Below the pieces are notes generated by a model. The model was not told the origin of the DNA. It saw only the letters and a list, made by a program, of their open reading frames with translations, and ran no database searches. Position numbers and translations under genes: made by a program. From Octopus vulgaris (taxonomy: Eukaryota): a DNA stretch of 64,000 nt. Location: the NCBI GenBank assembly GCA_951406725.2, contig OX597820.1, positions 116,746,001 through 116,810,000 of the forward strand. Direction: 5' to 3'. Position 1 is the first letter of the stretch. The number at the start of each line of letters is the position of its first letter. Of the stretch, positions 27,175-54,257 are shown piece after piece.

Positions 27175-27408
27175 TTAAAGAACAGTCAAATGCTGTATAA
27201 TGTAGGATTGAGAGAGTTCAGTGAATAAAGGGTCAGACAGCAGGTTCGGAGTTGATGAGTTCAACAACACGGCTGGTGGTCCATTGTGTCTTCAAGCAAA
27301 ACAGTTTTACATATCTTGGTTCACCAAGACAACCAGGGACTGCATTTGGACAATGTATTCCCACCAAAACTCCAAATGTGAACTCCATCATCATCATCAT
27401 CATCATCA

Positions 27409-27880
27409 TTTAACACCTGTGCTGTCTGACACCATCATCATTTAACACCTGTGCTGTTTGGCACCATCATTGTTTAACACCTGCGCTGCCTGACACCATC
27501 ATTGTTTAACACCTGTGCTGTCTGACATCATCATCGTTTAACACCTGTGCTGTCTGACATCATCATCATTTAACACCTGTGCTGTCTGACACCATCATCG
27601 TTTAACACCTGTGCTGTCTGACATCATCATCGTTTAACACCTGTGCTGTCTGACACCATCATCGTTTAACACCTGTGCTGTCTGACACCATCATCGTTTA
27701 ACACCTGTGCTGCCTGACACCATCATCGTTTAACACCTGTGCTGTCTGACACCATCATCGTTTAACACCTGTGCTGTCTGACATTATCATCGTTTAACAC
27801 CTGTGCTGTCTGACATCATCATCGTTTAACACCTGTGTTGTCAGACATCATCATCGTTTAACATCTGTGCTGTCTGACAC
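27409..27880. repeat. 32-bp minisatellite, ~15 units
   Basis: Unit TTTAACACCTGTGCTGTCTGACA(C/T)CATCATCG starting at 27409, 27441, 27473 ... 27857. Confidence 0.95.
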
Positions 27881-28239
27881 ACTTGCTCTCTCAGTGGGCA
27901 TTTGTCAAATTCGCAAGTTGGATATTTGGGCTGCAGGCAGAAGTGTTACTCTGCCTGCTGGAATGTCAGAACCGACCTAATGGTTAGCATTTGTGATGGA
28001 TGTGGTAAACTTGTCACTCAGAGCCACCTCAAACCACCCAGGAGTAATGATGCTGGAAGTACATGTAAGGACAGATCACCAGATCACTAATGGGAATAAG
28101 TAACAGACAGAGGAATGTTGTTCCTGACAGACAAATGGTCTTTCCGGAAGATGCTCACTTATTGTTTTGCTATTTGGCTTTGGTGATTTGTGCTTTGGAA
28201 AAGCTTCAAGTCTCATTTACTCAACCAATCAATCACTTA

Positions 28240-28433
28240 CAGTTCTATATTTAAGAGATGAGGAATTATTTACATTATTTACATTTGATGGATATTTGTC
28301 CTCATCTTGTTTGTTGTTAACACAACATTTCGGCTGATATACCCTCCAGCCTTCATCAGGTGTCATGGGGAAAATTTCGATCCTGGGTTCTCATTCCTAA
28401 GGTATTTTTCCAAGTTCGATTCCAGGCAGTGAT

Positions 28434-33150: not shown

Positions 33151-33317
33151 TAGGCGCAGGAGTGGCTGTGTGGTAAGTAGCTTGCTAACCAGCCACATGG
33201 TTCCGGGTTCAGTCCCACTGCGTGGCATTTTGGGCAAGTGTCTTCTGCTATAGCCCCGGGCCGACCAATGCCTTGTGAGTGGATTTGGTAGACGGAAACT
33301 GAAAGAAGCCTGTCGTA

Positions 33318-33366
<49 letters not shown>

Positions 33367-33586
33367 TGTGTTTGTGTGTCTGTGTTTGTCCCCCTAGCAT
33401 TGCTTGACAACTGATGCTGGTGTGTTTACGTCCCCGTCACTTAGCGGTTCGGCAAAAGAGACCGATAGAATAAGTACTGGGCTTACAAAAAGAATAAGTC
33501 CCGGGGTCGATTTGCTCGACTAAAGGCGGTGCTCCAGCATGGCCGCAGTCAAATGACTGAAACAAGTAAAAGAGAAAGAGAAAGAG
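33151..33586 (+). mobile_element. SINE family A
   Basis: Full-length copy. Confidence 0.85.
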
Positions 33587-34450
33587 ATATCTAGACATGA
33601 AGAAATATCACCTCACTTGTTTCCAAGTGATGGTTGGTGGCAGGAAGGGCATCCTGCTGTGTTGAAAATCTGCCTCAACAAATTCCTGTCTGACTGATGC
33701 AAGCATGGAAAAGTGGATAATAGATGTTTGATGATGGAAACTATAAATGTGGTTGGTGTTTATTTTATTGCCAGTGCAGAGAGGAAAGCCAGAGTGGGAT
33801 TAGAACTTGGAAGCATAAGGGATGAGGATAAATACTGACAAATACTACATAAGCTTTAGTCTGGCATTCTTCTACCTTAGAAAATCCTTCAGTCACTCTC
33901 AGTATTGATTCCTTTTGAAAAAACACAAAGACAATTTTTGTAGAGGAAGGATTTTGTAGTAAAGATTGTTTGCCAACATAACATGGCAGTCCTGGTTTAG
34001 GACGAATGTTGCTGTAATTTAGCCACGGGAGACATCATCTCCAGCTGGCTATACGACACGATCTGTGTCCTTATATTTTTGAACAAGGGAATCTAGCACC
34101 CCCACTCGGCTCCAGACAATATCTGTGTATTGTGATTTCTGGGTTATTTCTCTTCGTTAAATGCAAGTCTAAATGTCTCATAGAATTTAGTTATGACCCT
34201 TTATGTTTTGAATCAGTCTATGAAGATTTGCCCTTCTTTTTCATCTTAATCATTACAAGAACCAATAATGTATGGAGGTTGGTTCAATAATCAATAACCT
34301 CATTCATTTAATAATTACCTTGTGTCTGATCAATAAATATCATCAATAACCCTTACTATTGATCTTCTTAACATTTAACAAAGAATTTCAAGAAGCAATG
34401 ACTTGTATTGTTTGTCCTGAATAATTTTGTGCTTCTTGTCGTCCTTGCAG

Positions 34451-34689: not shown

Positions 34690-35596
34690 TGTAATGAATT
34701 CACAAACTTACCGTTAGCTGTGTTCTTGTGTTCTTGTGTTTTGTAACAGGATGAGAGATTCCCGCCCCTGGAGGGGTGCTGCTCGCATCCTTTACATCAA
34801 ATATTAATTGAAGAAAGAGTCAAGGTTTTCCGTTAACTTCAACAGTATAAATTTTTATTCTTTGATTCGCAGGAGTGGCTGTGTGGTAAGTAGCTTGCTA
34901 ACCAACCACATGGTTCCGGGTTCAGTCCCACTGCGTGGCATCTTGGGCAAGTGTCGTCTGCTATAGCCCCGGGCCGACCAATGCCTTGTGAGTGGATTTG
35001 GTAGACGGAAACTGAAAGAAGCCTGTCGTATATATGTATATATATATACATATATGTGTTTGTGTGTGTGTGTGTTTGTGTGTCTGTGTTTGTCCCCCTA
35101 GCATTGCTTGACAACCGATGCTGGTGTGTTTACTTCTCCGTCACTTAGCGGTTCGGCAAAAGAGACTGAAAGAATAAGTACTGGGCTTACAAAGAATAAG
35201 TCCCGGGGTCGATTTGCTTGACTAAAGGCGGTGCTCCAGCATGGCCGCAGTCAAATGACTGAAACAAGTAAAAGAGTAAAGAGAGTAAAGAGAATATAAA
35301 TATTTCCTTCCCCTGGGCGAATCGGCAACCTAGGAGCTTATCGGCAGTAGTCAAGTGGAGTGAGTCAGTCCTGCCTGTTCAAGCATAGCAGAGATGCGCC
35401 ACGAGGTAGGAGCTCGAGAGAGCTTCTGGAGACACTTCTGTATCGTTCAGCTGCTAGCGTCAAAAGAGAGAGATACAAGAGAATTTCACTGCTGCTAGTT
35501 TTCTGCGCATTTGCATGAGGGAACTCCTGGCTGGCCTTCTGGAAGATTCCAACCCTGCGTATGCATGCTGGAGATTTCCAAGATGGCGTCACTACA
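34690..35596 (-). mobile_element. probable solo LTR with a SINE A insertion (34868-35292)
   Basis: Termini TGTAATGA...TCACTACA (TG..CA, 7/8 inverted match), minus-strand AATAAA near 34854, GC-richer body. No TSD seen. Confidence 0.45.
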
Positions 35597-38176: not shown

Positions 38177-39050
38177 TTTACTTGAAAAGCTTGTGTGGTT
38201 CACGACTGTTCCAAGAAAACTAACTCATAAACTGAAACTGAAAAAAGGATTCTGTAAGAAAATGTTGTTCTCATCTTGGTAATTTAGTTGGACAACTTAT
38301 GTTGTATGTGAATGAAAGTGATTTAGAGAGAAGGAGAGATGGGTTGAGTGAAGGAGTTTGAGTGTCTCCTGCCACAATCAGTTTTTGAGTTAGTAACAGT
38401 TTGGTTGTTGGATGTTGCAGAAAGCTCTTTTTTACCAACAAGTCTAGAAGTCTGCTTGTCAAACGACTGATATGGAACTTAATATAACTTAGTGCACAAC
38501 TGCATCCATCTTCTGTTCTTTTTCCTCCCTATCGCTCTCTCTCCCTCTCCCTCACTCTCTTTCTCCCTCTCCCTCTCTCCTCACCTCTCTCTCTCCCTAC
38601 ATCCCCTCCTTCTTCCCTACCTCTCTTTTCCTCCTCCGTCTCTCTTTCCATCCCCTCCCCTCCCCTTCCTCCCTCCTGCCCCAACCCTTTCCTCCCTCTA
38701 CCGCCCTAGCTCTATCTGACCCTTTATCTGTCCTTCAATCCCCTTTCATAAGCTGCATTTAGCTTGACTGGTTTTCAGTCAACAACTTTTGATTCTTTAG
38801 AATTTCGGTTGGCACCATTTGACAAATTTTCTCCCAACCCTCAGAGTATTTATCAGTTGCTCATTCTCATGACTCTTTTACTCCATATGAAAGATTTTGA
38901 TTTTGACAAGAACCTTCTTGGGAAATTACTATTTTTAAACCTCACAACAAGAGATATTCAGCAACAGTACTTCGTAGTAAAGATTGTTTGCCAACAGAAC
39001 ATAGCAGTCCTGGTTTATGTTGGCAAACTATCTTTACTACAAGAACCTTA

Positions 39051-39805
39051 TCATCATCATCATCATCATTGTTTAATGTCCGTTTTCCGTGCTAGCACGG
39101 GTTCGACCAGGGTCTGGGAAGCCAGGAGGCTGCACCAGGCTCCAGTCTGATCTGTCAGTGTTTCTACAAGTGGATGCCCTTCCTAACGCCAACCACTCCG
39201 TGAGTGTAGTGGGTGCTTTTTACGTGCCACACAGGTGCCAGGGGGGTCTGGCATCAGCCATGATCAGTTGGTGCTTTTTACGTGCCACCGGCACAGGTGC
39301 CAGGGGGGTCTGGCATCAGCCATGATCGGTTGGTGCTTTTTACGTGCCACCGGCACAGGTGCCAAGGGAAGCTGGCAGCAGCCATGATTGGTTGGTGCTT
39401 TTTACGTGCCACCGGCACAGGTGCCAGTGCTGGCAGCAGCCATGATTGGTTGGTGCTTTTTACGTGCCACCAGCACAGGTGCCAAGGGAAGCTGGCAGCA
39501 GCCATGATTGGTTGGTGCTTTTTACGTGCCACCGGCACAGGTGCCAGGGGAGGCTGGCAGCAGCCATGATTGGTTGGTGCTTTTTACGTGCCACCGGCAC
39601 AGGTGCCAGGGGAGGCTGGCAGCAGCCATGATTGGTTGGTGCTTTTTACGTGCCACCGGCACAGGTGCCAAGGGAAGCTGGCAGCAGCCATGATTGGTTG
39701 GTGCTTTTTACGTGCCACCGGCACAGGTGCCAGGGGAGGCTGGCAGCAGCCATGATTGATTGGTGCTTTTTACGTGCCACTGGCACAGGTATCACAACTA
39801 CAATT
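39051..39805 (-). mobile_element. family D element with an internal 62-bp tandem array (~9 units)
   Basis: Unit ggtgctttttacgtgccaccggcacaggtgccaggggaggctggcagcagccatgattggtt; ORF starts spaced 62 bp (39446, 39508, 39570, 39632). Confidence 0.85.
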
Positions 39806-39955
39806 CAGGTTCAAATTGTGACATCTTAAAACTAAATGCAACAAAATGTCTTTCAAATTTAAAAACAAATTTTTGGGTTTGGAACATTTATCAGCCTTTC
39901 TTTTTAATGTGGTTTTTTAAAACATTTATTTTTGTTTTTCTCCTTTTAATTGCAG

Positions 39956-52768: not shown

Positions 52769-52990
52769 CTCTTTACTCTTTTACTCTTTTACTTGTTTCA
52801 GTCATTTGACTGCGGCCATGCTGGAGCACCGCCTTTAGTCGAGCAAATCGACCCCGGGACTTATTCTTTGTAAGCCCAGTACTTATTCTATTGGTCTCTT
52901 TTGCCGAACTGCTAAGTGACGGGAATGTAAGCACACAAGCATCGGTTATCAAGCAATGCTAGGGGGACAAACACAGACACACAAACACAT

Positions 52991-53031
<41 letters not shown>

Positions 53032-53190
53032 TACGACAGGCTTCTTTCAGTTTCCGTCTACCAAATCCACTCACAAGGCATTGGTCGGCCCGGGGCTATA
53101 GCAGAAGACACTTGCCCAAGATGCCATGCAGTGGGACTGAACCCGGAACCATGTGGTTGGTTAGCAAGCTACTTACCACACAGCCACTCT
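52769..53190 (-). mobile_element. SINE family A
   Basis: Reverse copy. Confidence 0.85.
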
Positions 53191-54129
53191 AACCTACAGA
53201 AAAAACAGCATTGCAAGGCACCACACACATCCTGCACTTTTGGTGCAGTAAAAATAACAACAAAACAAACCCAAGGACCATAGAGCCGCGCTTAACTGTG
53301 CAGCAAAAGCATGCAGTAGAAATAAGACTACAGAGTAATAACAACAACAACAACAACGACAACAACAAGTAACAATATGGTATTATTTAGGAGAGATTAG
53401 TTTCCACTGTTTCGTGATGTGAACCAATTTGGTGTGGAGATTAAAAGAATACAAATATTTCCTTGTGATTTTAATCACCATAGCTAAACAGGTCTTGTAT
53501 TAATTCTTTGTTTCTGGTTCCATGTTACTAAAAGAGATTAATAAAGATAAAAGCAGAACAGAGAAAATGGAACTGGAGAGAATTCTGACTCAGAGAAAAT
53601 AAAAATAAATGTTAATGCTTGTTTATTTATTCTGTAATTTCTGAGATTTATCAGAAGTCTACTGTGGAATCAGACTTAGAGTGCATTGTGTGTGTGAGAG
53701 AGAGAGAGAGAGAAGATGAGAGGGGAAAGATAGCGAGAGATTATATAAACTCACAGGAATCATCATCATCGTCCACTTTTTCATTCTTGTATGGGGGAGA
53801 CAAAATTTGTTGAGACAGTCTTTCTATGGCTAGGTGCCTTTCCTGTCATCAACCCTCACATATTTTCAAGCAAGGTGAGTTAGACATTTTTCACAAATGA
53901 TTGAAAATATAGAAATATTAATATTTCTAAGTCTCTCTAAAGGAAACTACGGCAGCGGTACTGGTAATTAACAGTTATCGCCAAGCTAATATGGCAGTCC
54001 ATATATATAAGACTAAAGCTGCCGTTGATTAGCTCCAACAGGCCATTGCCTCTAGCTAGCTATATGACACACGAACCATTATAACCTTCGAACAGGGGAG
54101 GCCAACAACTTCTCCTTGCTGATCAGGCA

Positions 54130-54172
54130 TCTGCAGACATGTTTCAGGGTATTTGCCCTTTGTCAATGCAGA
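54130..54172 (-). ncRNA. degenerate minimal hammerhead motif, different family
   Basis: TCTGCA-TTGACAA-AGGG caaata CCCT-GAAA-CATG-TC-TGCAGA. Perfect 6-bp stem I, 4-bp stem II, palindromic ACATGT stem III and GUC triplet; core differs from CTGACGA at two positions. Confidence 0.6.
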
Positions 54173-54257
54173 GTGGCCAGACCTAGCAGGCATCGCTGCT
54201 GACCGTCTGTTCGAAGGATTATTGAAAATATATATATATATATATAAATATAAATAT

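Follow-up and report, generated by a model that had tools for sequence, protein, structure and literature searches.

Retrozyme fragments in the analysed window

The window analysed here, a stretch of 64,000 nt from the 2.8 Gb genome of Octopus vulgaris, carries on its minus strand two related repeat fragments, at positions 33953-34155 (copy 1) and 53905-54223 (copy 2). They are dead, 5′-truncated members of two families, A and B, of one superfamily, and no sign of a host function was found for either. Each unit of this superfamily opens with one minimal type I hammerhead, encoded on the minus strand of the window, in which one unpaired base precedes stem II and stem III is palindromic. On the same strand lies a predicted domain of about 160 nt with eight helices around a four-way junction. 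Their order is the P1 hairpin; P2, a conserved internal loop and P3; P4, closing the junction with P5, P6 and P7; and the P8 hairpin. P4 is a long-range helix of 8 bp whose partner arm lies about 60 nt beyond its 5′ arm.

Copy 1 covers unit positions 12-214 and is 95.6% identical to the family A consensus. Its hammerhead remnant (34122-34155, predicted cut 34128/34127) retains stem II, the GAAA, a mutated stem III, an AUA triplet and the 3′ arm of stem I; the 5′ arm and the CUGA have gone with the truncation. This motif had been described in the initial annotation as heavily decayed. Homology to family A starts at 34155, inside the core; since copy 1 begins at unit position 12, its hammerhead is truncated rather than decayed, and 28 of 30 family A cores are intact. 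The remnant is accompanied by the P1 hairpin (34055-34069, with 34069-34065 pairing with 34059-34055), P2, the internal loop and P3 (34020-34051), the 5′ arm of P4 (34008-34015) and the two junction arms P5 and P6 (33972-34003; P5 34003-33999 with 33993-33989, P6 33987-33984 with 33975-33972). The copy ends in P7, with the 5′ arm and loop of this helix (33953-33961), at an insertion end that we call site 1 and that would correspond to a first reverse transcription start. Because copy 1 terminates at site 1, its P4 arm is without a partner. No ORF of the element is present.

Copy 2 runs from unit position 312 round to 276 and is 91.1% identical to the family B consensus. The hammerhead-like motif noticed earlier on its minus strand proved to be an intact minimal type I motif (54172-54130). 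Its core is of the U3:A8 kind, one base ahead of stem II is unpaired, stem III is palindromic and the triplet is GUC, with a predicted cut at 54136/54135. The motif sits at the apex of a predicted rod (54081-54217) in which 54217-54176 pairs with 54128-54081. P1 is disrupted by a 7-nt deletion, next to P2/P3 at 54030-54062. The four-way junction (53949-54025) is closed by eight Watson-Crick pairs of P4 (54025-54018 with 53956-53949), which encloses P5, P6 and P7; site 1 falls near 53970-53964. The interval 53905-53948 holds the P8 hairpin (53948-53943 with 53935-53930) and the AT-rich insertion end, or ‘tail’ end, termed site 2, where copy 2 stops and where a second reverse transcription start could lie.

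The scaffold common to both copies was recovered within 1 nt of the limits first reported (33971-34060 and 53979-54070). Its inner hairpin is P5, and its second hairpin with the enclosing stem is P3 with P2, read from the opposite strand; all of them covary across families. The plus-strand stem ATGGCAG/(C/T)TGCYGT did not survive the comparison, with 7 of 7 pairs in families A and B, 6 of 7 in D, 4 of 7 in each of C, E and F, and 3 of 7 in B2. We rejected it. P4 replaces it on the hammerhead strand, and the 5′ arm of P4 is complementary to the 3′ half of the rejected stem.

A third, two-armed insertion of family A, absent from the initial annotation, occupies 38923-39041. Its minus arm (39017-38923) runs to site 2 and its plus arm (about 39017-39041) to site 1, and an 11-nt duplication is present at 38906-38916 and 39039-39049. 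Elsewhere in the window, a type I hammerhead-like motif starts at 28364 on the minus strand, running towards lower coordinates, in an unrelated repeat with no domain after it; a similar case was seen at L130:48. The window also harbours 32-bp and 62-bp tandem arrays (27302-27973 and 39168-39864) and many copies of an abundant SINE, for example at 33155-33590, 34868-35292 and 52772-53190.

A large superfamily of hammerhead-bearing units

Both copies belong to families with several thousand members. First-look searches of the genome returned 2,699 candidates for copy 1 and 2,523 for copy 2 (40 scored in each case), and a 26-letter degenerate pattern gave 3,428 exact genome matches against none for the reversed control. 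A profile was positive in 9 of 60 blind 10-kb tiles, which suggests, as a rough extrapolation, tens of thousands of insertion sites genome-wide. At least seven lineages were sampled (A, B, C, D, E, F and B2), plus a subfamily, C2. Pairwise identity among the A-E and B2 consensuses ranges from 64 to 85% (68% for A against B), and copies keep the predicted fold across 15-35% sequence change. Copies from still further lineages were encountered near L236:6671, in L248, at L170:1461-1615 and at L112:493-553.

Tandem junctions give monomer lengths of 353 nt for family A, 361 for B, 357 for C, 353 for D and, from three linkers only, 344 for E. The unit is therefore 344-361 nt long instead of the approximately 220 bp proposed initially, and the structured domain exceeds the limits first given on both sides. 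More than one unit was present in 44 of 117 locus-family pairs, and locus L045 contains two complete hammerheads spaced 352 nt apart; most copies are dispersed and truncated. Private variants shared between tandem arms were near the control level.

The hammerhead core is intact in most family A copies (as CUGAnGA), in 36 of 38 copies of family B (U3:A8), in 17 of 19 of family C and in 8 of 16 of family E. In family D, with 1,187 first-look candidates, the core mostly carries a C3.A8 mismatch (9 of 16 copies; L172-L184). Judged from its core, the family D hammerhead is probably inactive, and this family has possibly spread without an active ribozyme. Its spread despite a mismatched core fits with cleavage being dispensable for insertion.

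Frames starting at the hammerhead ATG in families A and C end after about 30 codons, frames of about 175 codons cross single family D copies only, by chance, and no ORF with a reverse transcriptase (RT) and a GIY-YIG endonuclease was found in the retrozyme unit. On their testable features, these non-coding, hammerhead-bearing units are animal non-LTR retrozymes with Penelope-type insertions. We have little doubt that they are mobilized by Penelope-like elements (PLEs). The association with a Penelope- or retrozyme-type hammerhead noted at the outset is confirmed, the domain travelling with it.

In sequencing run X14, record 2 is a 363-nt contig that matches L003:1438-1798 and corresponds to one circularly permuted family B-like unit, which fits a tandem or a circle; the RNA nature of this run is only guessed, and contig-only runs show neither strand, ends nor circles. 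Contigs from a second organism match at 85% likeness. One conserved P2/P3 pattern had no match in metagenome_contigs or viral_contigs.

A conserved and covarying RNA fold

The same architecture emerged when five family consensuses were folded separately (z-scores of -2.9 to -5.4 for families A-E), with a z-score of -2.0 for B2. A blind RNAalifold prediction from 22 natural copies recovered P1 to P6; in 18 of its 26 pairs, both partners have changed. When the 42-pair structure was scored on a sequence-only alignment, all six pairs of P1 showed a two-sided change and 87.2% of cells were paired as compared with 35-47% in slid controls; the value was 87.9% in a model-fitted alignment of 98 matches. 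Family consensuses were built from 76 of these 98 rows, after 22 with a foreign 3′ part had been left out. Pairing holds for 272 of their 293 cells; of the 21 unpaired cells, several come from register shifts in P8, P5 and P3. For the 41 gap-free pairs, 93% of cells are paired and 21 pairs have changed on both sides, values to be read with the caveat that the structure was drawn from the sequences on which it was tested and that the families had been aligned to the model. Sequences fetched after the model had been built also agree with it. Family F scores up to 123.5 bits, with all eight P4 pairs formed and new compensatory pairs, and subfamily C2 fits with a two-sided change in P3.

One may ask whether this pairing is simply a relic of common descent from one structured ancestor, without continued selection. 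Within families, stems decay as much as loops, which speaks for this explanation. However, neutral simulations along the family tree, started from a fully paired ancestor with matched stem divergence (0.30), attained neither the observed pairing nor the observed two-sided count in any of 400 runs in each of 12 settings. They gave mean values of 69-80% paired cells, with a maximum of 89%, and at most 20 two-sided pairs. The equal decay of stems and loops within families shows merely that inserted copies are dead and indicates that selection acted on the master elements and not on their inserted copies. The relic explanation is largely refuted and retains, in our opinion, almost no credibility. 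We are nearly certain that the covarying structure is real.

Circular monomers of all five families are predicted to fold with a rod of 34-43 bp that joins the sequences flanking the hammerhead. All five monomers have an additional conserved hairpin in their linker, between P8 and the rod, where neither window copy extends, and a self-complementary hexamer of the rod, TTCGAA in families A, B and D, is replaced by TTGCAA in C and E, swapped on both sides.

The suggestion that the domain falls outside described classes agrees with a comparison with Rfam. No hit, whether to hairpin, twister, twister-sister, pistol, hatchet or HDV-like families, was obtained at the motif or the hammerheads, at E<=1 for the window or at E<=10 for three good copies, although this is a weak test that missed the minimal hammerheads too. 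For locus L005, the only Rfam hits were to miRNAs, on its inverted junction.

Strand of the fold

The assignment of the fold to the hammerhead strand rests mainly on the hammerhead itself, because several indicators do not separate the strands. Antisense folds have similar z-scores and about equal stability, G.U and A.C appositions are nearly balanced (10 to 8), and a test for RNA-editing scars was not significant (A>G 273/11,491 versus T>C 238/11,719, p = 0.07). These near-symmetries leave room for a role of the pairing in minus-strand cDNA or DNA, for second-strand priming or endonuclease recognition, and not in RNA. Nevertheless, each of the five families gains 3-15 kcal/mol in the stability of its circular fold when the hammerhead strand is folded instead of its complement, and G.U pairs are retained on that strand in P1 of families C and F and in P7 of family D. 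Moreover, P4 and P7 are complete on the RNA only, as a cDNA begun at site 1 would be without the P4 partner. We thus regard a function in cDNA or DNA as quite improbable and retain the fold as an RNA structure of the hammerhead strand. Of the second structured domain originally placed beside the hammerhead, the conservation and the covariation stand; neither the plus-strand reading nor a new ribozyme class finds support.

Most insertions end at two positions of the fold

We compiled insertion ends after leaving out 13 duplicate loci, matches shorter than 60 nt and matches touching a locus edge. Among 184 3′ ends, 64 fall at site 1 (in P7), 83 at site 2 (the AT-rich run after P8) and 37 elsewhere; as loci were selected as best BLAST hits, the proportions of the two sites are biased. 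Two windows that make up about 12% of the unit contain 147 of the 184 3′ ends and only 19 of the 184 5′ ends. Site 1 lies at a median of 5-7 nt into P7 and site 2 is located 40-56 nt beyond it.

Of 117 locus-family pairs, 40 had an inverted partner no more than 400 nt away. In such composites, both outer ends were 3′ ends in 47 of 47 cases; 30 combined site 1 with site 2, none combined two ends of the same site, and 17 had an unclassified end. This paired-end test was run after the third insertion of the window had been seen, and the choice of best BLAST hits biases the main arm and not the partner arm. Many composites show flanking duplications of 8-13 nt or microsatellite flanks. This pattern of fixed 3′ ends, an optional tail, scattered 5′ ends and an inverted 5′ arm is that of Penelope-type insertion.

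The ends also bear on whether the domain might be a second, undescribed ribozyme that cleaves or ligates on either strand. Its compact junction, the conservation of some unpaired bases and the lack of an Rfam match would suit such a catalyst. On the other hand, the domain shows no accumulation of 5′ ends, 3′ ends on two outward-facing arms are the product expected of RT starts, and the unit already has a hammerhead. Crude core patterns (hairpin, twister, pistol and HDV-like) yielded one stray match, to the pistol pattern, in 10 strands. A second ribozyme consequently appears very improbable to us. By eye, we also weighed an HDV-like and a hairpin-ribozyme reading for the plus strand and discarded both on topology.

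Search for an autonomous partner

The search for an autonomous partner with the fold was negative: none of the pLTRs in the C-terminal-EN PLE or Naiad-remnant loci tested (about 35 PLE loci) gave a match. A GIY-YIG scan, in which 150 of 6,136 candidates were scored, identified a young PLE family with a 781-aa product, along with other families. In this young PLE (L081:421-5660 and L082), the 781-aa RT/GIY-YIG frame is intact at many loci and is preceded by a frame of 333-359 aa; its pLTR has a U3:A8 hammerhead whose core and stem III are identical to those of family B. The element has two 3′ ends about 35 nt apart, without the fold, and the region after its hammerhead is shorter and AT-rich. 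PLE ORFs near retrozyme copies in L079, L084 and L235 are in opposite orientation or behind their own end, and R1 together with nhmmer detected only separate retrozyme insertions. In a set of Naiad and other PLE loci, R1 scored no higher than 20.4 bits, on AT-rich sequence away from the element start. Eight additional fetched loci revealed no new partner.

A motif of a published Octopus Naiad consensus has one exact match in the genome. Naiad remnants were located, and none matched the fold. Several of them (L221:1403, L223, L224, L228 and L230) match from the same position, and L223 and L225 have a segment of about 120 nt between the 3′ end and the start of the published consensus. PLE-type ends with a hammerhead and without the domain were also observed near L082:5735 (minus strand), near L175:2739, at L144:7045 and 8380, and at L145:2762; the one in L082 adjoins the 781-aa PLE tail to tail.

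A possible recognition and start signal for a PLE reverse transcriptase

Three roles had been suggested for the domain, namely RT recognition, priming and circularization. Because insertion 3′ ends cluster at two positions of the fold, RT recognition or priming is the best of these. A function in circularization would instead fit the 34-43-bp rod, a part of the unit other than the domain. From these sequence patterns, we consider it rather probable that a borrowed Penelope-type reverse transcriptase-endonuclease recognizes the domain and receives from it the signal to start. Several observations count against such a role: the loci tested yielded no autonomous partner with the fold, P1-P3 are far from both putative start sites, the 37 ends mentioned above are off both sites, and the tail exceeds the 30-40 nt given for PLEs (PMC8557442).

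The main competing explanation is that the fold is a scaffold of the circular RNA in general, contributing to its stability, its ligation, the control of the hammerhead or the binding of host proteins, and that the ends are set by local sequence (AU-rich, A/C loops) and not by the junction. The folding of the whole monomer as a circle with its rod, the conservation of P1-P3 and of the linker hairpin at a distance from the ends, the high self-pairing reported for retrozyme circles (PMC7229834) and the two ends of autonomous PLEs of the same genome that lack the fold all speak for it. Yet site 1 keeps a constant structural offset in five families whose P7 sequences differ, and a fixed junction geometry would be unnecessary for general stability. 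A general scaffold thus seems unlikely to us, and we continue with the recognition and start signal.

A cycle that would agree with these data can be outlined. The hammerhead and the rod would make unit-length circles via the retrozyme route (PMC7229834). Cleavage of a tandem transcript would be the work of the hammerhead, probably acting as a dimer or assisted by protein; the rod would keep the new ends together and a host ligase would close the circle. A PLE protein dimer could then bind the P4 junction and nick both strands of an AT-rich target DNA, after which one cDNA would begin at each of the two sites. The outcome would be two back-to-back arms, only one of which carries a tail of 40-56 nt. 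Selection would work on the replicating master copies.

More specifically, the P4 junction and P8 might form an RNA docking domain that positions the PLE dimer on a single circular RNA, such that each active site would begin copying at a fixed point of its own, with one start per target strand. This is a tentative model that we hold to be possible but doubtful. Protein-binding junctions of telomerase RNA would be a possible counterpart of the P4 junction, by analogy. If the docking model were true, the domain would be the earliest example, among animal retrozymes and PLEs, of an RT-recognition structure defined by covariation.

PLE reverse transcriptases are the closest relatives of the telomerase RT, and how they recognize RNA and which enzyme moves animal retrozymes are the questions on which the domain bears. 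A domain of about 160 nt with two mapped, putative start points offers a minimal substrate for in vitro TPRT, probing and structural work, and the natural compensatory variants are ready-made pairs for disrupt-and-rescue experiments.

Comparison with known retrozymes and PLEs

The element class, PLE-linked non-LTR retrozymes, is already known, and repeat catalogues may list these families under unclassified or Penelope repeats. We found no description of the domain or of octopus retrozymes in the literature or in Rfam; octopus elements or a fold for the Anolis Poseidon element (PAc) may be listed in the supplementary material of PMC7229834, of PMC11167929 and of a preprint from 2026 (bioRxiv 10.64898/2026.07.22.740005). 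Octopus is absent from the main text of PMC7229834, and the giant squid genome paper, in the text available, counts 235 hammerheads and says nothing further about them. According to a review, metazoan retrozyme repeats have no conserved motif that would indicate the helper element (PMC7761336).

The octopus units resemble the metazoan non-LTR retrozymes described so far (PMC7229834; PMC7761336; bioRxiv 10.64898/2026.07.22.740005) in being non-coding and about 350 nt long (350-390 nt in mussel), in their single type I hammerhead per unit, low GC content and tandem and partial-tandem copies, and in the highly self-paired predicted circle and proposed mobilization by PLEs. Unlike the retrozymes in these reports, they are mostly dispersed and truncated. 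Moreover, whereas the folds given there are minimum-energy predictions only, the octopus units possess a domain supported by covariation, in seven lineages and with insertion ends.

The hammerheads share with those of PLE pLTRs the minimal type I core, the unpaired base before stem II, the palindromic stem III and the U3-A8 variant (PMC4209133). Similarly, PLE insertions display an inverted 5′-truncated arm, a tail at one end and microsatellite or AT-rich targets (PMC8557442). The octopus units differ from PLEs by the lack of an RT/GIY-YIG ORF and by a tail of 40-56 nt instead of 30-40 nt (PMC8557442), and the ends of those autonomous PLE and Naiad copies that were compared did not match them. 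As to cleavage, eight of nine predicted Xenopus elements are reported to be without it.

The closest experimental parallel is the single PLE examined in vitro, Anolis Poseidon PAc (PMC11167929). In vitro, its protein, a predicted dimer, extends both strands and requires RNA downstream of the hammerhead; two internal RT starts, the first of which lies in a stem-loop, define the tail, and hammerhead cleavage is not required (PMC11167929). PAc and the octopus units are thus alike in having a hammerhead followed by an RNA region, which PAc requires, two tail-defining starts, the first in a stem-loop, and extension of both target strands (the starts and the extension being putative in octopus), and AT-rich targets. 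In contrast to the octopus units, PAc is autonomous, its required region is protein-coding, and no covariation model is given for it in the main text (PMC11167929). The first site is also closer to the hammerhead cut in PAc, about 85-92 nt past it (PMC11167929), as compared with 171-177 nt in octopus families A-D.
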